A stretch of 64,000 bases of DNA from Candidatus Liptonbacteria bacterium (lineage in GTDB: Bacteria; Patescibacteriota; Minisyncoccia; UBA6257; 2-01-FULL-56-20): positions 13,327-77,326 of the forward strand of contig JAHFLJ010000001.1 in NCBI GenBank assembly GCA_023244935.1, read 5' to 3'. The translations under genes and the position numbers were made by a program. Below the pieces are notes generated by a model that saw nothing but the letters and a program-made list of their open reading frames with translations, had not been told where the DNA came from and searched no databases. The stretch's first letter is position 1, and every line of letters begins with the position of its first letter. This document shows positions 946 to 62,551 of this stretch, piece after piece.

Positions 946-1126
946 TGTGGACGAATAAGGAATTGAACCTTTAGACTGCCCTCACGCCAATGCCGTCTTT
1001 GTGCCGCGGGAGAGATTTGAACTCTCATGGTCTTGCGACCGCTGACACCTGAAGCCAGTGCGTCTGCCAGTTTCGCCACCGCGGCATTGGTATAAGGGAT
1101 GAAGCAACCAGCTTCACTACTCGTCC
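946..1126 (-). other. tRNA-like scaffold (acceptor, D-arm, T-arm) enclosing the tRNA-Leu; possible composite or permuted structured RNA
   Basis: Minus strand: 5' GGACGAG-TA-G-TGAA-GCTGGTTGC-TTCA...CCCTT // ...GAGGG-CAGTCT-AAAGG-TTCAATT-CCTTA-TTCGTCC-A-CA 3'. The acceptor (7 bp, one G-U), D-arm, T-loop TTCAATT and a 17-bp helix (983-999 vs 1082-1098) bracket the tRNA-Leu. See findings. Confidence 0.35.
1002..1085 (-). tRNA. tRNA-Leu (anticodon CAG), class II with long variable arm; CCA not encoded
   Basis: Reverse complement reads GCCGCGG-TG-GCG-AAACTGGCAGA-CGC-A-CTGGC-TTCAGGT-GTCAG-CGGTCGCAAGACCATG-GAGAG-TTCAAAT-CTCTC-CCGCGGC-A. It has a perfect 7-bp acceptor, D, anticodon, variable and T arms, and anticodon CAG. 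Confidence 0.85.
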
Positions 1127-5150: not shown

Positions 5151-5245
5151 TAACGTGTAACGCGTAACTTGTAACGCGTAGCACAAAGACGTGTAGCGTA
5201 TAGCATGTAACTTGTAGCGTGGAATACAAGTTGTATTTGTCATCC
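5151..5245. repeat. two ~33-bp direct repeat units upstream of gpmI
   Basis: acgtgtaacgcgtaacttgtaacgcgtagcac and acgtgtagcgtatagcatgtaacttgtagcgtgg occur in tandem. Confidence 0.4.
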
Positions 5246-5268
5246 CGGGCCTGCTTGCCCGCCAAAGC

Positions 5269-5288
5269 CCTGCCTGCCGGCAGGCAGG
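5269..5288. repeat. perfect 20-bp palindrome CCTGCCTGCCGGCAGGCAGG (also 9664-9683; 16-bp core at 9491-9506; variant at 50974-50989)
   Basis: An exact self-complementary 20-mer found at three loci, each adjacent to an ATTCGTA-rich sequence. Confidence 0.7.
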
Positions 5289-5643: not shown

Positions 5644-7164
5644 ATGTATACATATTTAGCAGCCATCGTGGCGCTGGTTTTAGGTTTAGGAATCGGATAC
5701 ATAGTCCGAAAAAAAATAGTAGCTAAACAGCTCGGAAGTCTGGACCAACAACTACAACAAAGAACGTCTGAAGCTGAAAACAAAGCCAAAGAGATTCTTT
5801 TTACCGCCAAAGAAAAAGCCTCGGAGATACTCGAAGAAACCCAGAAAGAAGAAAAAGAAAGAAAACGTGAAATTCTGGCGCTGGAAACAAAGATACACGA
5901 ACGCGAAGAAGCCATCGACAAAAAACTAAATACCCTCGAATACGAATCAAATTCCTTACGAAAAGAACGGGAGGTTATTGAAGGTAAAGTTAAAGAACTC
6001 GAAGAAGTAAAAGAAAAAACAAAAAAGGAACTGGAAAGGATTGGTGGCTTGAGCCGAGACGAAGCCCGCGAAGCATTGTTCACGGAAATAAAAGAAAAAA
6101 GCCGTGACGACCTTGCTCGGACCTCGCAAAAACTGGAAAAAGATCTTCGGGATGAAATCGAGAAAAAAGCTAAGGAAGTTATCACCATAGCCCTTCAACG
6201 CTATGCCCGTTCCCACGTTTCCGAATTAACCACCAGTGTGTTTCACCTCCAAGATGAAGAAATCAAAGGAAAAATTATCGGTCGCGAAGGTAGAAATATT
6301 CGCGCCCTGGAAAGAGCCACCGGTGTAGAATTTATTATGGACGAAACTCCGGACACGATTGTCATTTCTTCATTCGATCCATTCCGACGTGAAGTCGCCA
6401 GTCTCGCCTTAGAAAAACTTATTAAAGACGGCCGAATTCAGCCAGCCAAAGTTGAAGAAAAAGTAGAAGAGGCTAAAGAAGAACTAACCAAAAGAATGTC
6501 GGAAATCGGCGAAGCCGCCGCGATGGAAGTTGGAGTTTATGATTTACCGAAAGAAATCCTCCAACTGCTCGGCCGACTTCACTTCCGAACCAGTTTTGGC
6601 CAGAATGTTTTAACTCACTCGATTGAAATGACTTACCTGGCCGGAATGATTGCCGGAGAACTTGGACTCAATGTTGCCCTTGCGAAGAAAGGCGCGCTGG
6701 TCCACGATATCGGAAAAGCAATTGACCACGAAGTTGAAGGGACCCACGTGGAGCTTGGTATTAAAATCTTGCGCAAATATGGAGTTGGCGAAGACGTTAT
6801 CAACGCCATGCGCTCTCACCACGAAGACTATCCTTATGCATCCCCGGAATCTTTTGTGGTTACCGCCGTTGATGTCCTCTCTGCCGCCAGACCCGGAGCC
6901 AGACGTGGAACAATGGAAAATTATATTAAACGTCTCGGTGACTTGGAAAAAATTGCCGGCGAATTTCCGGGAGTTAAACAAGCCTATGCAATTTCTGCCG
7001 GACGCGAACTCCGAGTATTCGTTACTCCGGAAAAGATTGATGACTTTGGCGCTTTGGAAATGGCTCGCTCAATCGCCAACCGAATTCAATCCGAACTTAA
7101 GTTCCCAGGAGAAATTAAAGTTAATGTCATCCGCGAGACCAGAGCAGTGGAATACGCAAGATAG
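5644..7164 (+). CDS. rny: ribonuclease Y
   Basis: An N-terminal TM helix, a long coiled coil, a KH domain (IGREGRNIRALE) and an HD domain (HDIGKAIDHE) give the classic RNase Y architecture. Confidence 0.9.
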   Translation: MYTYLAAIVALVLGLGIGYIVRKKIVAKQLGSLDQQLQQRTSEAENKAKEILFTAKEKASEILEETQKEEKERKREILALETKIHEREEAIDKKLNTLEYESNSLRKEREVIEGKVKELEEVKEKTKKELERIGGLSRDEAREALFTEIKEKSRDDLARTSQKLEKDLRDEIEKKAKEVITIALQRYARSHVSELTTSVFHLQDEEIKGKIIGREGRNIRALERATGVEFIMDETPDTIVISSFDPFRREVASLALEKLIKDGRIQPAKVEEKVEEAKEELTKRMSEIGEAAAMEVGVYDLPKEILQLLGRLHFRTSFGQNVLTHSIEMTYLAGMIAGELGLNVALAKKGALVHDIGKAIDHEVEGTHVELGIKILRKYGVGEDVINAMRSHHEDYPYASPESFVVTAVDVLSAARPGARRGTMENYIKRLGDLEKIAGEFPGVKQAYAISAGRELRVFVTPEKIDDFGALEMARSIANRIQSELKFPGEIKVNVIRETRAVEYAR

Positions 7165-7200
7165 ACTAATAACTTATCACTAATAACTGATAACTAAAAG

Positions 7201-7789: not shown

Positions 7790-7992
7790 ATCCGAAAGTA
7801 TATATAAACGGATAATATTGTCAAATGCCAAACTTCCGCCTCAACCCCCAGGAATCCGCGAGTTTTACGTACCCAAGCCAGGATTTTTCGGAAATTTATT
7901 TACAACCGGATACAACCAAAGCAAAAAATCGTAAGTCTTTTGATAAATTATTAGATCCTGAAGCATTTTGAAAATTAAATTCTATATTTTAT

Positions 7993-8081: not shown

Positions 8082-9653
8082 CTACCGAGCACAGCGGAAC
8101 CCGATGCTGCCGCCCGTATCCGTCGGACCAGTGCTCAAGATCAACGTCTCTACCCCAGCGTACGTGTCATAATACCAATCCCCACCGCGAACGAAGGCGT
8201 AAGGAGTTGACCCTCCGGCGGAGTATGAGGAATTTATCCTGCCAATTCCCTGAGTTGCGGTCCAGGCTGAATTTGAAGGTCCAGCGAGAGTTGGAGATAA
8301 GGTTCCCCAATTTGTTATGTTCGGAAACTCTCGCCATCCTGTCGGCTGTGGTTGATTTCCGTTGGTGATTGTGTCGTTAGTCCATTCCCAAACGTTCCCT
8401 GCCAAGTCCCAAATAATTTGACCATTCGAAAGAGTGTGGGCACGTCGGTGAGTGAAGTCGGCTGTGACAAGGTAGGTTGAATTGGTGTCGTCTGCAGATG
8501 CAATTTGCGCCGCAGAACCATTTGAATTTCCTCTGCCCAAGTATCCACTTCCGACTGAACTTCCGCTCCAATTACTTGATACACTCTGTGCATTCCAAGC
8601 AATTGTTTGCCATTCGTTGTTGGTGATGAGATGTGCTCCGATAGATTGGCAGTAAGAATGTGAAGTTGTTTGATCGATATTTGCGATTGGGTATCCGGCA
8701 GGAGTGGAAGTTAAATACCTTCCGGATGTATTACAAGGATATCCAGAATTATTATACGTTTGATATCCGGTATCGTAAGGTGCCGATCCAAGCGGACCCG
8801 TAGTATCCGCGCACTTGGCTTCGTATTTCATCACCCAAAAATCAGATGTTCCGAAGGTGGAGTTGCCAGGGACTCTAATCCAACCATTTGGAAAGATTCC
8901 TGCTCCAAGATTCATATTATTTCCCATTTCAAAAGAAGCGGGCGCTGTGCCTCCGTCGGTATTTCCTTGCACAATGTATTTTTGGGATTCCAGGGATACG
9001 GCGGTTAGCTTCCAGCTTCCTCCAGACATATAGGTGTAATAATTCAGACTTGTAGTGGTATTGATTGGATCGATGGGAAGTTGTGAAATTGGAGAATTGG
9101 ATGATATCTTTTGGAAGTTAACCGGAATCCAGCCGGTGCCGTCGGTTTTACGGAGATTGGCAGTGGTGACACAATTGTATTGCCAGCCGGTTGGGAGAGT
9201 TGGCAGACCTAAGTTGGCGCACGTTGAAGATATGTCCGGAATGGATACATAAACCACCGTGGGTGTTCCCATAGATCCTGTGGAGACATCTGCAGAAAAC
9301 AGATTAAGCGCGGTGTTGATTGTCGAGAGATCCGAGAATCGATTGGAATCTCTGGCTTGTTTGAGTAATTCCCCTGGGTTAAGAGCCATAATAACAACCA
9401 CACTTAAAATCGCGACTAGGGCGAGGACTACCAGGAGTTCGATAAGGGTAAAGCTTCCCCGTTTGTTTACCCTGAGAGTAGTCGAAGCCTTGCCTGCCGG
9501 CAGGCAGGGGTCAGTCTGAGCCTGCGAAGAATCTAAATTAGATCCTTCCCTGCGTTCAGGATGACAGAAAAGAGAATTCAAAAACCTGGATTGTCCAAGC
9601 AAGTTGGACAATGACAGAATAGAAAAGAAACTTCCTTTGTTTTTATTCTTCAT
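8082..9653 (-). CDS. prepilin-type N-terminal domain protein fused to a C-terminal FGE-sulfatase (SUMF1/C-type-lectin-fold) domain; start uncertain
   Basis: NKRGSFTLIELLVVLALVAIL is a class III signal. The C-terminus carries HLITNNEWQ, WDLAGNVWEWT, RGGDW and GFRCAR motifs of the FGE-sulfatase family. The gene is GC-richer than its neighbours. The ORF's first ~60 codons lie in a dispersed repeat, and no ATG/GTG/TTG lies between the repeat and the KRG site. Confidence 0.6.
   Translation of the reverse strand: MKNKNKGSFFSILSLSNLLGQSRFLNSLFCHPERREGSNLDSSQAQTDPCLPAGKASTTLRVNKRGSFTLIELLVVLALVAILSVVVIMALNPGELLKQARDSNRFSDLSTINTALNLFSADVSTGSMGTPTVVYVSIPDISSTCANLGLPTLPTGWQYNCVTTANLRKTDGTGWIPVNFQKISSNSPISQLPIDPINTTTSLNYYTYMSGGSWKLTAVSLESQKYIVQGNTDGGTAPASFEMGNNMNLGAGIFPNGWIRVPGNSTFGTSDFWVMKYEAKCADTTGPLGSAPYDTGYQTYNNSGYPCNTSGRYLTSTPAGYPIANIDQTTSHSYCQSIGAHLITNNEWQTIAWNAQSVSSNWSGSSVGSGYLGRGNSNGSAAQIASADDTNSTYLVTADFTHRRAHTLSNGQIIWDLAGNVWEWTNDTITNGNQPQPTGWREFPNITNWGTLSPTLAGPSNSAWTATQGIGRINSSYSAGGSTPYAFVRGGDWYYDTYAGVETLILSTGPTDTGGSIGFRCAR
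9510..9616. repeat. 107-bp dispersed repeat unit, copy A (copy B at 50990-51096, ~95% identical)
   Basis: gtcagtctgagcctgcgaagaatctaaattagatccttccctgcgttcaggatgac... plus the ttgtccaagcaagttggacaa hairpin. It is internally palindromic and flanked by CCTGCC...GGCAGG palindromes. Confidence 0.7.
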
Positions 9654-9881
9654 TCGTATAATTCCTGCCTGCCGGCAGGCAGGCGTATTGATTCGTAATT
9701 TCGTAATTATTCTAAATTCTATTTTCTGAGTTCTATATTCTATGTTCTAACTATACCACATTTTGCCTCTGGGGGGGGCAACAACAGCTGGGGATAGTTA
9801 AAGGACTCATAGCTTATCAACTTATAACAAATAACTAAAAAGAATTTGAGGCCGGAATTATTAGTGATTGGCGATAAGTCA

Positions 9882-11615
9882 TTAGCCATTCTTCAGCATC
9901 CCCAACATCCCTTCGACGTCTCTAGTATTTATTATATCACTTTTTTTCGCCCAACCGCGACGCGCCTGCGTAATCCCAAATTTCAAAAAATCAAAATGTT
10001 CCGAGGAATGCGCGTCGGAATCAATCGAAAGTTTCACGCCGGAATTTACGCATCTGCGAATATAATCGTCCTTCAAATCCAGCCTATCCGGGTATGCATC
10101 AATTTCTAATATCGTTCCGGTCTCTTTAGCTTTGCGGATAAGCGCCTCGGCGTCTACGGCATATGCCTCTCGCCTTTTAATAACTCTACCGGTTGGATGG
10201 AAAATTATATCTACGTTCTTATTCTCCATCGCTCTACAAATCCTTGCAGTCTGCTCTTTGCCGGATAAATTGAAATTTGAATGTACCGCTCCCCCCACCA
10301 CCTCCAACCTGGAAAGTGTTTTATCCGACAAATCCATGCTTCCGTCTTTTAAAATATCGCACTCACTTCCCTTCAAAATTCTTATCTTGCCGGCGAACTT
10401 TTTATTTAATTTATCAATCTCTGCCATCTGTTTTAAAATTTTTTTATCGTCTAAACCTCCGGTCATCGCCAATCGTTTTGTGTGATCGGTAATCGCGATA
10501 TATTTTAGTCCGCGAGAGATAGCCACCTTCGCCATCTGTTCTATGGAGTGCGCGCCGTCAGTCCAATCGGTTTGCACCTGCAAATCGCCCTGTAAATCCT
10601 TGTAGCCGATAAGTTTCGGCAATTTACCGATCATCGCCGACTCAATTTCACCGGTATTTTCTCTAATCTCCGGCTCGACATACTGAAGTCCAAGCGCGGA
10701 ATAAATCTCCTCCTCAGTTTTTCCGGCAATCTGCTTAAGTCCTCGATAAAGCCCATATTCATTAAGTTTATAGCCTTTTTTTATCGCAAGTTTTCTTAAG
10801 CCGATATTGTGCATCTTAGAGCCGGTAAAATAATTCAATGCCGACCCATAAGAATTTCTTGGCACCACGCGCAAATCAACATCCAATCCGTTTTTCAATT
10901 TTATTGATGACTTAGTTTCTCCATTGGCAACAACCTTGGCAACCGCCTGCATAGAAACAAACTCTTTCATAATTTTTTTGGAATCCTTCACGATTGCCAA
11001 AATATCCAGGTCTCCCACAGTTTCTTTTCCTCTGCGCGTTGACCCGGCAATAACAACGGTTTCAACTCCGGCAACCTCCAGAAGTTTTTCCTTAATTTTT
11101 TCGGCAAATGGCAACGCCTCACCCAAGGTAAATCGCCCACCGGATTTCTTAAGGAACTCGATGCTTTTCAAAATATTTTGTTCTGCCTTCGTTCCGAATC
11201 CTTCAAGCTTAGAAACTTTATGAGCGTTCACTGCTTTCTCGAGAGTAGCCAAGTCTTTTATTTTTAAAGCAAGATATAATTTTTTTATAGACTTAGGTCC
11301 GAGCCCTTCGATGGCGCTAAGCTCTTTTAAATTAACCGGCACGGCTTTTTGAAGCTCCGCGTAATGCGAAGACTTCCCCGTCAGAAGAAATTCTTCGATA
11401 GTTTGCGCAATTGATTTTCCAACCCCGGGAATATTCTCAATTCCTTTAATTCCGTTAGCTTTATAGATACTCACAACCGAATCGGAAAGCTCGGAAACCG
11501 AATCCCCCGCTTTTTCGTATGCTCTCGGCTTAAAAGGTTCTTCTTGCATCGCCAAAAATTCTCCTATTTCGTAAAGTAGTTCCGATACTTCTTCGTTTGT
11601 TTTCTCTTTAATCAC
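9882..11615 (-). CDS. polX: DNA polymerase X family protein with C-terminal PHP domain
   Basis: 577 aa with helix-hairpin-helix motifs (GIENIPGVGKSIA), a Pol-beta-like nucleotidyltransferase (GSTRRGKETVGDLDIL) and a PHP domain (H-rich C-terminal half). Confidence 0.85.
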   Translation of the reverse strand: MIKEKTNEEVSELLYEIGEFLAMQEEPFKPRAYEKAGDSVSELSDSVVSIYKANGIKGIENIPGVGKSIAQTIEEFLLTGKSSHYAELQKAVPVNLKELSAIEGLGPKSIKKLYLALKIKDLATLEKAVNAHKVSKLEGFGTKAEQNILKSIEFLKKSGGRFTLGEALPFAEKIKEKLLEVAGVETVVIAGSTRRGKETVGDLDILAIVKDSKKIMKEFVSMQAVAKVVANGETKSSIKLKNGLDVDLRVVPRNSYGSALNYFTGSKMHNIGLRKLAIKKGYKLNEYGLYRGLKQIAGKTEEEIYSALGLQYVEPEIRENTGEIESAMIGKLPKLIGYKDLQGDLQVQTDWTDGAHSIEQMAKVAISRGLKYIAITDHTKRLAMTGGLDDKKILKQMAEIDKLNKKFAGKIRILKGSECDILKDGSMDLSDKTLSRLEVVGGAVHSNFNLSGKEQTARICRAMENKNVDIIFHPTGRVIKRREAYAVDAEALIRKAKETGTILEIDAYPDRLDLKDDYIRRCVNSGVKLSIDSDAHSSEHFDFLKFGITQARRGWAKKSDIINTRDVEGMLGMLKNG

Positions 11616-15185: not shown

Positions 15186-15187
15186 TC

Positions 15188-15214
15188 GAGCACATGCCAT
15201 GTGCTCTTTTTTTT
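15188..15214 (+). terminator. intrinsic terminator
   Basis: gagcacatg-c-catgtgctc followed by nine T. Confidence 0.75.
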
Positions 15215-15441
15215 ATCAAGCACATGATATGTGTTCGGCAACCCTGCGCTACGCCCTGCGAAACTTTAGTGAAGCAGGGTAGCCACGCGCCATGTCCTGC
15301 AAATCCGCCAGTCGGCGGCTGGCGGAGAAGTCGGATAACCCCGCCTTGTCATCCCGGGCCACGACCCGGGATCCAGTATTCGTTTTCCGTAATTCCACAT
15401 TCGGCATCCTGCCTTCCACGCTATGCGCTACATATTACAAG

Positions 15442-39895: not shown

Positions 39896-40263
39896 GGGGA
39901 TGATGGGCTTCGCCGAGAGACGGAGAGCTTCCCTGCGAGCCGAGCGCAATCTCGCAAATCTTGCACAAACTACTAACTGCCAACTTTAAAGTTGCAGCTC
40001 CTGCCTACGCCTACGCGTAACGCACGGGGATCTCCTGCCTGATTTATCACGCAAGAGGATCGGCTAGCCTTTGCCCTTTGGGTTAATACCGGTCTTATAT
40101 AAAAGGACTACTTCGCGAAGAGGCGACACGACTCTCGCGGATAAAAAATCGTGTCGTCCTGATCAAAAATCAGAACCGTTTCAAATTTATTTTTGAAACT
40201 ACGCTCGTAGACGGGCTGTCTTTGCCCCTTTCGCACGAGGGTTCAACTCCCTCCATCTCCACA
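39896..40263 (+). ncRNA. ssrA: tmRNA (SsrA)
   Basis: 5' GGGGATGATGGGCTTCGCC...GCGAGCCGAG... and 3' GGACGAGGGTTCAACTCCCTCCATCTCC-ACA are clearly alignable to Bacillus-type tmRNA. The tag ORF GCC AAC TTT AAA GTT GCA GCT CCT GCC TAC GCC TAC GCG TAA (39979-40020) gives ANFKVAAPAYAYA. The promoter TTGTCA-17-TATTAT ends 8 nt before the 5' G. Confidence 0.85.
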
Positions 40264-40266
40264 AAC

Positions 40267-42631: not shown

Positions 42632-42800
42632 GTATATTTGTTTTTTTCGGTCGACGTTTATGCAAATCAAAGAGCTAATACTGATTAAAATAATGCATCC
42701 CCGAAGAAGTTCTTGCAAGCCCCGCGACTGCTTTCTCTTACCTTGTATTCTAAATTCTATTTTCTAGGTTCTATTTTCTATCCACGTTATAATTCCTCCT

Positions 42801-50713: not shown

Positions 50714-50742
50714 TTGACAAATTTATCTAGGAGTGCTATCAT
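50714..50742 (+). promoter_or_regulatory. sigma70-like promoter TTGACA-17-TATCAT driving a non-coding unit
   Basis: The -35 is at 50714-50719 and the -10 at 50737-50742. Confidence 0.55.
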
Positions 50743-50748
50743 ATACCC

Positions 50749-50953
50749 AATCTCGAAGTGTTCATTTCAAATCTGGGGGCAGGAATTTTTCTCAGTTTTA
50801 GGATGGTTTGGCTTCGGCGAAACCTCTCCTCGGTTTAATTCTATCCTCTTTCCGTTTTACGCGAAAGAGAACCAAATCCATTTATGGACGTCCCCAGGTT
50901 TGAGTTGATCACTTCTCATCCGGACACTGCATGCAGTGTCCGGGTTTTGTTTT
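50749..50953 (+). ncRNA. candidate ~200-nt structured sRNA (6S-like closing helix) with its own promoter and terminator
   Basis: No credible ORF. The 5' cgaagtg...ttcaaatctgggg pairs with the 3' ccccaggtttga...cacttct (6 + 12 bp). The terminator is ccggacactgca-tgcagtgtccgg + gttttgtttt (50920-50953). Confidence 0.4.
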
Positions 50954-50989
50954 ACATATTCATTCGTAAAATTCCTGCCGATAGGCAGG

Positions 50990-51096
50990 GTCATTCTGAG
51001 CCCGCGAAGAATCTAAATTAGATCCTTCCCTGCGTTCAGGATGACAGAAAAAAGAATTCAAAAAACTGGATTGTCCAAGCAAGTTGGACAATGACA
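50990..51096. repeat. 107-bp dispersed repeat unit, copy B
   Basis: ~95% identical to 9510-9616, preceded by the cctgccgataggcagg palindrome and followed by an ATTCGTA-rich sequence. It generates the spurious ORF 50960-51175. Confidence 0.7.
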
Positions 51097-51202
51097 AACC
51101 GAAAAGCTTCTTTCTCTTGTTCGTATTATTTTTATTATTCGTAGACATTCGTATATTAATATTGTTATGAGTCACAAGTTATAAGTTATTAGTCATAAGT
51201 TC

Positions 51203-52879
51203 CTAAATCCACGGAATCGGCCCGGTCGTCCCCTCAACTTCGTCAAAAGTAGTCATCCCGGACAAAACTTTCAAAACTCCGTCTTGTTGCATGGTCACCA
51301 TCATCTGCTTCTCCGCCAGCTTTCGGAGAGAGCGCTCGGAAACTTCGGTTAAAATAACTTCTTCCAACTCCGGCCCACCTTTGAAAAACTCGAAAATTCC
51401 TCGTCTTCCTTTATAGCCAAAACCATTACAAGTCTCACAGCCAACCGGCGCGAAAACCGTTATTTTTTCATATGGTTTTTTATCTACTCTTGCCGGAACC
51501 TTTTCCAAATATTTTTTTATCTGCTCGATTTTTTTTGCGTCCAAATCAACCGGTTTTTTACAATTGTCGCAAAGCTTCCTAACTAAGCGTTGAGCAATGA
51601 TTAAAGTAACCGCCGGACCGATGCTTGCCGGCTTTACGCCAACGTCAACAAGACGCGGGATTGCGCCGACCGCGCTATTGGTATGAAGCGTAGACAAAAC
51701 CAAATGCCCGGTTAACGCTGCTTGAATCGCAATTTCCGCAGTCTCTTGATCGCGGATTTCACCGACGAGAAGCACATCCGGGTCTTGACGCACGATTGCT
51801 CTTAATCCTCCGGCGAAAGTATACCCGGCGTCCGGATCAACTTGTGTTTGCTCAATTCCTAAAATTCTATATTCAATCGGATCTTCAACGGTAATAATTT
51901 TTGTTTCCGGGTCAACCAACTTTCGGAGGAACGCGTAAAGAGTCGTGGTTTTTCCGGAGCCGGTCGGTCCTGTATTCAAAATCAGTCCATTTGGCCTTTT
52001 TAGCTCCGCTTCCACCAGAGCCAGGTCGTCCTCTCGCAGACCGAGCTGTGGCAAGGTCACATTAATTCCCGCCGGATCCAAAATACGCATAACAATTGTT
52101 TCTCCGAATTCCGAAGGGATAAGCGAAACGCGCATTTCGATTTCTTTTTCCGGCAACCCTATTGTAAATCTTCCGTCTTGTGGCTCGGAATGAACATTTA
52201 ATTTTAATTCGCAAAGTAATTTTATTCTGGTAACCAAGCTGACATAGTTTTTTATCGGCAAATTTGCGATGTCGTGAAGTAGTCCATCCACGCGATACCT
52301 AACCCGCGCATCTTTTTCTTGAGCTTCAAAATGAACGTCAGAGGCTCTGGTGGTTAACGCTCCGGCTAAAAGTGTTTCCAAAAGACTCGACACGCTTGCG
52401 GATTTATAATCAAAGGTTGCCAGGGTCTGTTGAACCATCTGAAAAGTCTTAAACTTTTGCATATCCTCAGCGAATCTCACCGCGTCGATATTTATTCCGC
52501 CGGTAATTGACTCTTTCCCTTTAGAAACAAATTTATAAAATTCCAGGGCTTGTTTAACCGCCGACAAAGAGACTACGAACGGCTTAATTTTATATCCCTT
52601 TTCTTCCAAATAGGTAATCGCTTTTTGCGCCTCTTCGGTTGTTGGGTCATAAAAAATTACCGCTAAGTCTTTATTATTTAATTGTATGCCAACTCCCAAA
52701 GCCTTCCTTGCTTCCTCTTCCGGAAGCAAAGCAACCGCCTCAATCGAAATCGGAGTTTTCCCTAGGTCAGCGTAAGTCAACTTAAGTCTCTCGGCGCGAC
52801 GCTTCGCTTCCCGCTCCTCTCCGGCGCGCCTAATTGCTTCTAATTTATTCGTTAACTCACCTTGGGGTGTAAGGTTCAT
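51203..52879 (-). CDS. pilB: type II/IV secretion system ATPase (PilB/GspE family)
   Basis: Walker A GPTGSGKTTT, Asp box, Walker B and His box, a tetracysteine motif CDNC...CETC, and an N-terminal GSPII-like domain. Confidence 0.85.
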   Translation of the reverse strand: MNLTPQGELTNKLEAIRRAGEEREAKRRAERLKLTYADLGKTPISIEAVALLPEEEARKALGVGIQLNNKDLAVIFYDPTTEEAQKAITYLEEKGYKIKPFVVSLSAVKQALEFYKFVSKGKESITGGINIDAVRFAEDMQKFKTFQMVQQTLATFDYKSASVSSLLETLLAGALTTRASDVHFEAQEKDARVRYRVDGLLHDIANLPIKNYVSLVTRIKLLCELKLNVHSEPQDGRFTIGLPEKEIEMRVSLIPSEFGETIVMRILDPAGINVTLPQLGLREDDLALVEAELKRPNGLILNTGPTGSGKTTTLYAFLRKLVDPETKIITVEDPIEYRILGIEQTQVDPDAGYTFAGGLRAIVRQDPDVLLVGEIRDQETAEIAIQAALTGHLVLSTLHTNSAVGAIPRLVDVGVKPASIGPAVTLIIAQRLVRKLCDNCKKPVDLDAKKIEQIKKYLEKVPARVDKKPYEKITVFAPVGCETCNGFGYKGRRGIFEFFKGGPELEEVILTEVSERSLRKLAEKQMMVTMQQDGVLKVLSGMTTFDEVEGTTGPIPWI

Positions 52880-53853: not shown

Positions 53854-53972
53854 ACGGATAAATTCCTTAAAAATGACCCTTCGTAGCCACGCGCTACGGG
53901 GCGAAGTAGAGTTCCGCGAAGTCGCGGCTAGTTATTAGTGATAAGTAATTAGTTATAAGTTATTATTAACCC

Positions 53973-55630: not shown

Positions 55631-55668
55631 AAAACCCGGACAGTCCATGGACTGTCCGGGTTTTTTTT
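55631..55668 (+). terminator. intrinsic terminator
   Basis: cccggacagtccatggactgtccggg is a perfect 26-bp palindrome followed by tttttttt. Confidence 0.8.
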
Positions 55669-61968: not shown

Positions 61969-62395
61969 TTGGGAAGAATATACAAAAGAATTATTCAACA
62001 AAATGGGGTTTGCGGACTTCAGTTTTGACTTTGACGCCGAACACCGGCACGGCGGAGTTTTTCTATATGAAAAAGATCTGATAATAAAGGACAACCTGGC
62101 TTTTTTTGTCGAGAATCTAAACCACGTTTTGCAGTTGGTTGCTCAAAAAAATGGCGAAGATAAAGTTTATATAGATATAAACAATTATAGGAAAGAAAGA
62201 GAAAAACTTCTTATAGAATTGGCCAAAGCCGCCGCTCGCAAAGCCGTCTCCACCAAGCAAGAGATTCCGTTACCGGCAATGAATTCTTATGAGAGAAGAA
62301 TTGTCCACGCGGAGTTGTCCGCCCGACCCGATGTAAAGACCGAAAGCCAAGGGATGGGAAGAGAAAGATTTATAACAATAAAACCGCTCGATTAG
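61961..62395 (+). CDS. jag: Jag/KhpB-like R3H-domain RNA-binding protein
   Basis: A C-terminal R3H region (YERRIVHAEL). Canonical position after yidC. Confidence 0.7.
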   Translation: MINWEEYTKELFNKMGFADFSFDFDAEHRHGGVFLYEKDLIIKDNLAFFVENLNHVLQLVAQKNGEDKVYIDINNYRKEREKLLIELAKAAARKAVSTKQEIPLPAMNSYERRIVHAELSARPDVKTESQGMGRERFITIKPLD

Positions 62396-62478
62396 AAAAT
62401 AGAACATGGAATTTAGAAAATAGAATAATACATCGATTTCATTCTAAATTCTATTTTCTACGTTCTAGGTTCTAACCG
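62394..62478. repeat. TAGAA-family palindromic repeat (inverted pair) between convergent genes
   Basis: tagaaaatagaacatggaatttagaaaatagaata ... cattctaaattctattttctacgttctaggttcta. It probably acts as a bidirectional terminator. Confidence 0.6.
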
Positions 62479-62551
62479 CCCACATTCTGTCATCCTGAAC
62501 AAAGGGAATGTTCTCTTCTTATTAATACACTAGATTTCCTGCCTAAAGTTA

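Follow-up and report, generated by a model that had tools for sequence, protein, structure and literature searches.

Hairpin units resembling Ssn-type repeats form a duplicated block at pilin-type start regions in a Candidatus Liptonbacteria genome

In this work we analysed a stretch of 64,000 nucleotides, hereafter the window, from the genome of a Candidatus Liptonbacteria bacterium, a member of the candidate phyla radiation (CPR) (GenBank assembly GCA_023244935.1, contig JAHFLJ010000001.1, positions 13,327 to 77,326 of the forward strand). The names of protein homologues likewise suggest a Paceibacteria- or Wolfebacteria-like CPR genome. A 107-bp repeat block occurs in it twice, near 9.5 kb (copy A) and near 51 kb (copy B), and adjoins a short palindrome that we call H1. 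Our preferred explanation, to which we give a probability of roughly 0.55, is that the block together with H1 is an intergenic mosaic similar to the repetitive extragenic palindromic (REP) elements, assembled from Ssn-type hairpins of single-stranded DNA (ssDNA) and copied as a block. The evidence comes from the anatomy of the block, from the recurrence of its units in other genomes and from their neighbourhood with small GIY-YIG genes.

Ssn nucleases and their hairpin targets were described in 2025, mainly in Neisseria and other Gram-negative bacteria (Chenal et al., Nat Commun 2025, PMC11893778), and CPR bacteria are a group unmentioned in that paper. SsnA is a single-domain GIY-YIG protein of 94 amino acids, which binds its hairpin solely as ssDNA and in a single orientation, its cut falling immediately 5' of the GTCAT hairpin unit. 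The ssn gene is typically flanked by inverted motifs, and the copies of the motif per genome reach up to hundreds. In Neisseria the motif, NTS, has the sequence CGTCATTCCCGCGMAVGCGGGAATCYRG and is a longer oriented form of the dRS3 repeat, and the Ssn system modulates transformation in this genus. The published pattern of the Ssn-related motifs (SRM), HGTCWYN(0-2)YYVSBRHN(0-5)WNVSBRGN(0-2)RNCYNB, was built by hand on 29 genomes of 4 phyla (PMC11893778).

A first-pass annotation of the window, made by a model from the sequence alone, had described the repeat and most of its parts, and on these points it proved accurate. The two copies, at 9510-9616 and 50990-51096, match at 103 of 107 positions, the mismatches lying at 9514, 9523, 9572 and 9585, and a repeat search of the window returned the pair as 9508-9616 and 50988-51096 (109 nt, 96% identity). 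Both copies contain the imperfect inverted arms gtca(g/t)tctgagcc(t/c)gcgaagaatc and gatccttccctgcgttcaggatgac as well as the small hairpin ttgtccaa-gcaag-ttggacaa, and ATTCGTA-rich tracts follow both of them. The palindromic 20-mer H1, CCTGCCTGCCGGCAGGCAGG, has exact occurrences at 5269-5288 and 9664-9683 and a third, with a single mismatch, at 9489-9508, whereas 100 shuffles gave 0 matches; beside copy B it takes the variant form CCTGCCGATAGGCAGG (50974-50989). The GTCATCC(T/C)G motifs were found at 5241, 62489 and 15348, the last one nucleotide away from the position first given (15349). The weak similarity said to continue past the core is marginal, with an alignment score of 27 against 11.7 ± 4.8 for shuffles, the highest of which reached 31. 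The G+C content of the block is 45-48%, against 26-36% in the flanks, and its folding on both strands stands far above that of shuffles (RNA z -3.3 to -6.2; DNA z -3.8 and -4.5).

A scan for GTC followed by an A-started stem, and closed by the second arm of the stem and C, resolved the block into three units of one design, GTCAT-[hairpin]-ATC. Each consists of an inverted repeat framed by GTCA(T/G) at its start and ATC at its end; a and b are read on the minus strand and c on the plus strand. In copy A, H1 (CTTGCCTGCCGGCAGGCAGG, 9489-9508, the occurrence with one mismatch) directly abuts unit c (GTCAGTCTGAGCCTGCGAAGAATC, 9510-9533), of which the GTCAT start is mutated to GTCAG. Unit b (GTCATCCTGAACGCAGGGAAGGATC) follows at 9541-9565 and unit a (GTCATTGTCCAACTTGCTTGGACAATC plus CAG) at 9586-9615, or 9615 to 9589 when CAG is left out. 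In copy B, the H1 variant abuts unit c (GTCATTCTGAGCCCGCGAAGAATC, 50990-51013), unit b has the same sequence as in copy A (51021-51045), and unit a, at 51066-51095 (51095 to 51069 without CAG), is followed by TTTTTTG on the minus strand. The general form of unit c is GTCA(G/T)TCTGAGCC(T/C)GCGAAGAATC, and its T version (GTCAT) recurs base for base in a related contig, L003. Given this identical copy, unit c would be a lineage variant and not the outcome of random decay.

Units b and c are convergent and separated by a spacer of 7 nt, and for this reason they can be read as one palindrome, an imperfect hairpin of 56 nt. Where the stem of unit b has a C-G pair (ATCC...GGAT), that of unit c has T-A (ATTC...GAAT). 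The stem is thus maintained within each unit, and the G-U wobbles of the long b/c hairpin follow from this as a by-product. The hairpin of unit a folds as ssDNA with -8.4 kcal/mol (z -4.9).

Beyond the two blocks, a solo unit, TGTCATCCCGGGCCACGACCCGGGATCCAG, lies at 15347-15376 on the plus strand in a GC-rich intergenic insert; the unit itself, at 15348-15373, is perfect and folds as DNA with -8.6 (z -3.1). A degenerate unit, GTCATCCCGGGCCTGCTTGCCCGCC, is followed by the exact H1 of 5269-5288 (5241-5288, plus strand), and a degenerate solo copy of unit b, GTCATCCTGAACAAAGGGAATGTTC, with 87% identity to the block over 30 nt, is found at 62489-62513 (plus strand). No unit lies inside any homology-supported gene, and the visible units in the window number nine. 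A loose scan of the window for GTCA-hairpin-C gave 20 matches against 18.5 ± 5.3, hence no enrichment, whereas the specific units are far above chance.

By architecture and association, we conclude that unit a and the unit at 15348 are putative members of the Ssn-type repeat class; units b and c are candidates for the Ssn system by shared architecture alone. TGTCAT and ATCCAG are common to NTS, unit a and the 15348 unit. The HGTCWY flank on the 5' side is present as TGTCAT in unit a, in unit b and in the unit at 15347, and the departures from it are confined to unit c, with GGTCAT in copy B, where the first G is not H (A, C or T), and the mutated GGTCAG in copy A. An inverted repeat of the 20-50-nt kind is formed by unit a and by the 15348 unit singly, and by b and c as their 56-nt hairpin. 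In the window the full SRM pattern has its sole match at 15347-15376 (1 against 0.2 expected). The GTCAT...ATCCAG hairpins that we collected from the fetched loci have constant flanks and fully covarying stems (TGTCCAA/TTGGACA, TGCCCGG/CCGGGCA, TACCCGG/CCGGGTA, TGTCCGG/CCGGACA, TCCCGC/GCGGGA and others), a set that includes both the Neisseria-type stem TCCCGC/GCGGGA and the stem of unit a.

Unit a was searched for in one genome per GTDB species, which gave 15 contigs or loci. It carries the ATCCAG end in 12 of the 15, with the loop CTTGA or, in one contig, CGCGA. The 12 carriers comprise Smithella, other Deltaproteobacteria, a metagenome-assembled genome (MAG) of Pseudobdellovibrionaceae and a related CPR MAG, which also has a 68%-identical orthologue of the pilin described below (L004). 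An inverted NTS-type unit lies within 80 nt of unit a at 6 of the 15 loci. A GIY-YIG gene was present inside the 8-kb locus at three of them, about 110 nt or less from the unit in two cases and about 1.4 kb from it in the third. In one of these contigs (L130), the ATG of a GIY-YIG gene of 100 codons lies 11 nt downstream of GTCATTGCCCGGCTTGACCGGGCAATCCAG, and the stop of the gene is closely followed by unit a in inverted orientation. Two further contigs (L126 and L134) have the same flanks by sequence similarity, all three being of Deltaproteobacteria or Smithella, and this layout is the one published as NTS-ssnA-NTS. Related CPR contigs (L129 and L003) likewise carry small GIY-YIG genes near units; the one in L003 encodes 78 amino acids and stands immediately after bAvd, an unusual neighbour for a cassette of a diversity-generating retroelement (DGR). 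A search of viral contigs with the 100-aa GIY-YIG protein returned partial matches only.

Vertical inheritance of intergenic sequence cannot explain why unit a is nearly identical in different phyla. That GTCATTGTCCAA...TTGGACAATCCAG is almost the same in CPR bacteria and Deltaproteobacteria would imply either horizontal spread or a very tight constraint by a protein. The window (5213-5240, before the 5241 unit) and L129 (2745-2771, before unit a) have in common a stretch of 21 nt, AACTTGTAGCGTGGAATACAA, ahead of a GTCAT unit, and the mosaics may thus share further conserved building blocks. The label REP-type given by the first-pass annotation was right in spirit, in that the units are short oriented hairpin repeats, with further occurrences in the window, among related genomes and even in unrelated phyla.

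Units of the b/c kind form a subclass of their own. The pattern GTCATYCTGARC-N6-9-AAGRATC was found in at least 120 IMG/VR contigs, the commonest forms among the matches listed being GTCATTCTGAGCGAAGCGAAGAATC and GTCATCCTGAGCGCAGCGAAGGATC. The variable stem pair of the 161 units among these matches is T-A in 79, C-G in 79, C-A in 2 and T-G in 1. This covariation is strictly Watson-Crick and wobble is not tolerated, so that it fits pairing of DNA better than pairing of RNA. The centre is GCGNAGC in 89 of the same 161 units, with ACGNAGT as a covarying alternative in which the closing pair changes from G-C to A-T. Convergent b/c doublets of 63-176 nt are common in viral contigs among the matches listed.

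Several observations weigh against an Ssn-type origin of the block. Units a, b and c fail the full SRM pattern, their stems being richer in A and T and units b and c ending in ATCTAA; this weakens their membership without excluding it, since the pattern is hand-built. Units b and c show no significant fold singly under a nearest-neighbour DNA model, their centres (ACGCAGG and GCC(T/C)GC) are off the GCGNAGC consensus, and both units may be decayed in the window. No GIY-YIG homologue was found in the 64-kb window by tblastn. The GIY-YIG proteins encountered here were not assignable to the Ssn clade cd10448, and the solved structures nearest to them are those of UPF0213. Among 80 metagenome loci, retrieved through an alignment of GIY-YIG proteins headed by the 78-aa protein of the CPR type, GTCAT units were near the gene in 6 cases versus far from it in 9, without clear enrichment, and a profile of small GIY-YIG proteins found no such gene beside b/c units in 1.1 Mb of viral loci. 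Finally, nine units in 64 kb are far from demonstrating a genome-wide expansion.

Both copies of the block sit just downstream, on the minus strand, of a pilin-type start region. Copy A lies between polX (9882-11615, minus strand) and a pilin-like gene (8082-9470, minus strand), which has the N-terminal methylation motif SFTLIELLVV and a C-terminal FGE-sulfatase/C-type-lectin domain. Between the block and SFTLIELLVV there is no ATG, GTG or TTG. Just upstream of unit a, an ATG at 9653 opens a Lys/Asn-rich stretch resembling a pilin leader (MKNKNKGSFFSI, 9617-9653, minus strand), and a single open frame leads from this ATG through all three units into the pilin gene, which is why the pilin was called at 523 amino acids (8082-9653). 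The pilin would either be translated from ATG 9653, with a leader of 62 residues running through the units, or be silenced or non-functional. The same arrangement without a start codon is found in the orthologues P0014 (L002) and P0006 (L003); the site holds unit a and a long NTS-type unit in L002 and three b/c-type units in L003. In L004, L223 and L225, units are absent and the pilin leader is short and ordinary. The first-pass annotation had proposed that the same unit at the same position in orthologous loci would speak against mobility, and the outcome is mixed: some orthologous loci carry related units at the same place with a different content, and others are empty. This picture indicates turnover at the pilin-locus site and not a fixed ancestral sequence.

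The pilin homologues are DGR targets, with bAvd, a template repeat or a reverse transcriptase downstream in L002 (1997-2520), L003 (6637-7204) and L225 (4617-6857), the template repeat being a copy of the pilin 3' end. In the window, a bAvd remnant of 28 residues is left downstream of the pilin gene (7883-7966, minus strand; 60-68% identical to bAvd of L002 and L003), no template repeat matching the pilin 3' end (8082-8340) was found anywhere in the window, and the DGR appears decayed there. Five pilin homologues (P0018, P0023, P0033, P0049 and P0053) show the leader and FTLIELLVV partially duplicated in tandem ahead of the real N-terminus. Rearrangement is recurrent at the 5' end of this pilin family.

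Copy B lies between pilB (51203-52879, minus strand) and ruvB. On the minus strand it is preceded by a remnant of a pilin start, atatacgaATG followed by MSTNNKNNTNKRKKLF (51097-51160, ATG at 51148), which is 88% identical over 49 nt to the promoter, start and leader of the L004 pilin gene. A contig of the same species from Logan (L001, 99.4% identical) ends right after unit a, at window position 51067, as contigs end at repeats.

H1 is a palindrome separate from the units. It adjoins unit c in both copies and also occurs alone, just upstream of the start regions of the form AATT(A/T)TACGAATG (9664 and 50974) and at 5269. On the minus strand the exact 20-mer at 9664-9683 precedes ATG 9653 by 10 nt, and the copy B variant stands directly before AATTTTACGAATG, continuing on the minus strand with AATTTTACGAATGAAT; each of the two is thereby beside a pilin-type start motif. 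In the pilin homologue P0053 the copy B variant is translated, as MPIGRQ, just before the SFTLIELL motif. Palindromes like H1, CCTGCCTGC(N1-2)GCAGGCAGG, were present in 4 of the 80 metagenome GIY-YIG loci and absent from the 1.1 Mb of viral loci. H1 may be an operator, an RNA hairpin close to the start or a component of the repeat system, and such palindromes may also serve as termini or insertion targets, as the first-pass annotation suggested.

The composite itself, defined as the end of unit b through unit a, gave 0 matches in the GTDB species genomes and the JGI metagenomes. It was therefore not seen beyond the two copies of the window; a total of two copies in the genome was an outcome that the first-pass annotation had named as speaking against its reading. 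The linkers are conserved between copies A and B. Conserved linkers and a b-to-a combination that is unique point to a recent block copy within this lineage, and show that the a-b-c block was duplicated as one piece.

In the mechanism that we propose, each unit would fold in ssDNA, and a small GIY-YIG protein of the Ssn type would bind it in one orientation and cut just 5' of GTCAT. The repeats would build up between genes, as single units and as convergent doublets. The CPR genome studied here would have, or would have had, a cognate Ssn-type nuclease, and the units would act on ssDNA, for example on incoming or replicating DNA. The block may have been copied between two pilin-type 5' regions through recombination or through another repeat-spreading process. 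As side effects, unit a with its U-run might terminate minus-strand transcription coming from polX (copy A), from pilB (copy B) or from a pilin-type promoter, and the block of copy A would part the sole ATG (9653) from the body of the pilin, with either the 62-residue leader or silencing as the consequence.

The position of both copies also raises the question of whether the block is primarily a cis-acting RNA element of pilus transcripts, that is a terminator, an attenuator or a set of mRNA-stabilising hairpins on the minus strand. We consider this unlikely. Both copies indeed have a minus-strand gene on either side, at least one of the two belonging to the pilus, the orthologous pilins of L002 and L003 have hairpin units at the same place, the RNA folds are significantly stable, and in both copies unit a runs into a U-run on the minus strand (9573-9585 and 51053-51065) and was flagged as terminator-like. 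The resemblance to a terminator is weak, as the stem of 9 pairs includes only 3 G-C pairs before it leads into CCAGGTTTTT in copy A (GTTTTTG) or CCAGTTTTTT in copy B, and is not evidence of function. Moreover, Rfam gave nothing for the block at the gathering threshold when the whole window was searched, and only a chance-level ctRNA (E 6.5) for 9400-9800 at E <= 10. The unit content varies among orthologues, some of which have none; unit a occurs in unrelated contexts in distant phyla; and in the b/c subclass the G-T wobble is as rare as C-A (1 versus 2 of 161 among the matches listed), which fits DNA better. An RNA function would rather be a secondary use, as with REP elements, and would leave the origin of the repeat unexplained.

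A second explanation takes the repeat for a by-product of pilin 5' regions that were duplicated or recombined, without mobility of its own; each copy would then be the remnant of a pilin start together with the intergenic hairpins downstream of it. Much of the context described above would agree with it: TATACGA-ATG and a Lys/Asn-rich leader-like stretch precede both copies on the minus strand, the flank of copy B is nearly that of the L004 pilin start, H1 followed by AATT(A/T)TACGAATG is found both downstream of copy B and upstream of ATG 9653, and partial duplications of the N-terminus are frequent in the pilin homologues (P0018, P0023, P0049 and P0053). The leader-like flanks, however, are far more diverged than the blocks; the two start regions share 43 matches in 89 aligned columns, with a score barely above that of shuffles, against 96% identity for the blocks. 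It follows that the start regions diverged before the block moved, or was converged, between them. In addition, the units clearly belong to a repeat class that spans phyla, and we give this explanation only a small chance.

A further idea concerns the place of the block in the pilin gene. GTCAT blocks might be targeted to, or tolerated at, the junction between leader and mature part of DGR-diversified CPR pilins and be kept in frame there as a switch or a filter. This is speculative and, in our view, quite improbable. It is kept alive because the three orthologous pilins (window, L002 and L003) differ in their units at the same spot and have no start codon downstream of them, and because the second copy of the block also follows a pilin start remnant, beside pilB. 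If true, a switch would mean that termination at unit a or an overlong leader gates the pilin, reversibly through recombination between the duplicated start regions, and a filter would mean that the block marks ssDNA of pilus genes on uptake for cleavage by an Ssn-type nuclease, which would control the exchange of pilin alleles.

Translation of the copy A block as part of a 62-residue prepilin leader, which prepilin peptidase would remove, is compatible with the other explanations and seems to us very improbable. Besides the open frame from ATG 9653 and the missing start codon before SFTLIELLVV, an AGGA is present 9-10 nt upstream of this ATG, and in P0006 (L003) and P0014 (L002) the units abut the leader in the same way, without a start codon between. 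These orthologues were, however, noticed through long called open reading frames (ORFs), which is a selection bias, and GC-rich units rarely hold stops in forward frames. Three of the four substitutions between copies A and B alter the amino acid in this frame, copy B has the same open frame without an attached pilin, and in most homologues the leader is 5-25 residues long. Searched against 5.8 billion proteins, the peptide that the block encodes in this frame found no relatives (one candidate shared words, none scored), so the block is not commonly translated or called elsewhere.

The other label of the first-pass annotation, that of a miniature inverted-repeat transposable element (MITE) of about 110-130 bp, with terminal inverted repeats, moved by cut and paste with a transposase in trans and with the CCTGCC...GGCAGG palindromes as termini or targets, is not supported and seems to us most improbable: two 96% copies at unrelated loci, a fitting size, strong internal inverted repeats and a same-species contig that breaks inside the element would suit it, but the block ends, CCTGCC... 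on the left and ...GGACAATGACA (...ATGACA) on the right, are not complementary or mutually inverted, the inverted repeat (b/c) is internal and not terminal, the flanks on the H1 side are unrelated, no target-site duplication was detected (the repeat past H1 in copy A is 7 against 4.8 ± 2.6 in shuffles), the units are found independently and recombined differently in other genomes, and two large collections yielded no more composite copies. A candidate target-site duplication at copy A (KNKGSF / NKRGSF) was suggestive as peptide and was rejected as not significant as DNA.

Other features of the window were recorded in addition to the units. AT-rich intergenic arrays with a period of 7 nt (or 14 nt), made of TTCTAnn, GTAACnc, ACTAATA, AAGTTAT or ACGAAT, are located at 1263-1356, 5151-5180, 7160-7197, 9700-9760, 42740-42783, 51164-51201, 53928-53967 and 62391-62491, and include an inverted pair of 84 nt (1265-1348 and 62391-62474, 93% complementary). 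The same TAGAAnn and ACGAAnT arrays precede the pilin gene in L002 as well, and the arrays look like a lineage-wide promoter or spacer feature. Between ruvB and copy B there is a near-consensus promoter at 50714-50742 on the plus strand (TTGACA-17-TATCAT with TG, 11/12), and a strong terminator at 50918-50945 closes a transcript of about 200 nt (50714-50950, plus strand) with a possible ORF of 64 codons that has no Pfam match; a similar terminator hairpin is found at 55636-55668. The GC-rich insert that ends with the perfect GTCAT unit covers 15186-15441 (64% G+C over 15230-15376), between a convergent ORF of 124 codons and the gene of uracil-DNA glycosylase, and contains several hairpins, among them CCGCCAGTCGGCGG, a sequence that recurs as the inner stem of an L003 unit. 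The Rfam matches at gathering threshold in the window were the tmRNA (39896-40264, plus strand, 115 bits) and one tRNA (1002-1085, minus strand). Hammerhead and kink-turn readings of the CUGA...GAA core were rejected on inspection, as the core positions do not fit, and a literature search by sequence strings gave unrelated primer matches only.

These findings have some practical consequences. The subclass GTCATYCTGAGCGNAGCGAAGRATC falls outside the published pattern, so present motif counts are probably too low. For annotation, the units inflate ORFs, as with the 523-aa pilin call, and break assemblies. CPR bacteria rely on pilus and competence machinery. Repeats at type IV pilus genes matter in view of this reliance and of the link between Ssn and transformation in Neisseria.

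Compared with known systems, the block resembles MITEs such as the Correia elements in its size class (about 100-150 bp), in being multi-copy and intergenic, in its inverted repeats and in a possible effect on the expression of neighbours. Unlike them, it is modular, its parts reshuffle between genomes, and it has neither terminal inverted repeats nor a target-site duplication. Closer parallels are the bacterial interspersed mosaic elements (BIMEs) and REPINs of Escherichia coli, which are mobilised by the RAYT transposase, and the neisserial intergenic mosaic elements (NIMEs). They too consist of short imperfect palindromes with a fixed 5' tag, pair in inverted orientation into a long hairpin, as b and c do, form intergenic mosaics with other short repeats and may act secondarily in termination or in the stabilisation of mRNA. 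The fixed tag reads GTCAT here and GTAG in REP and BIME sequences, the evidence points to a GIY-YIG protein class and not to a Y1 (RAYT) transposase, and REPs are species-specific whereas unit a is near-identical across phyla. The consensus centre of the b/c subclass outside the window is the d(GCGNAGC) sequence, an extraordinarily stable DNA mini-hairpin (reviewed in PMC13037366). With their deviant centres, units b and c of the window differ from it, and the mini-hairpin is a property of the subclass that these copies may lack.

The closest relatives are NTS, dRS3 and the SRM. In common with them, the units here are oriented and intergenic, with a non-palindromic 5' (T/C)GTCAT, a hairpin of 20-50 nt and a 3' ATC(YRG), stems that covary between genomes, convergent pairs, and inverted units on both sides of a small GIY-YIG gene (here unit a in L130 and L126). 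Clusters near surface and pilus genes are reported for Neisseria (PMC11893778), and pilus genes are neighbours here too. They differ from the SRM in that units a, b and c of the window are outside the pattern (the solo unit at 15347 is inside it) and have AT-richer stems, in the purine-rich centre of b and c where the SRM have a simple stem, and in their CPR host, in which no ssn gene is visible within the 64-kb window and the relation to Ssn is proposed from sequence. In kind, the block is thus a known one, that of the dRS3/NTS/SRM repeats and of BIME- or NIME-like mosaics. What is new here is the CPR host, the identity of unit a between phyla, a widespread subclass that the published pattern misses and the position at pilin starts.

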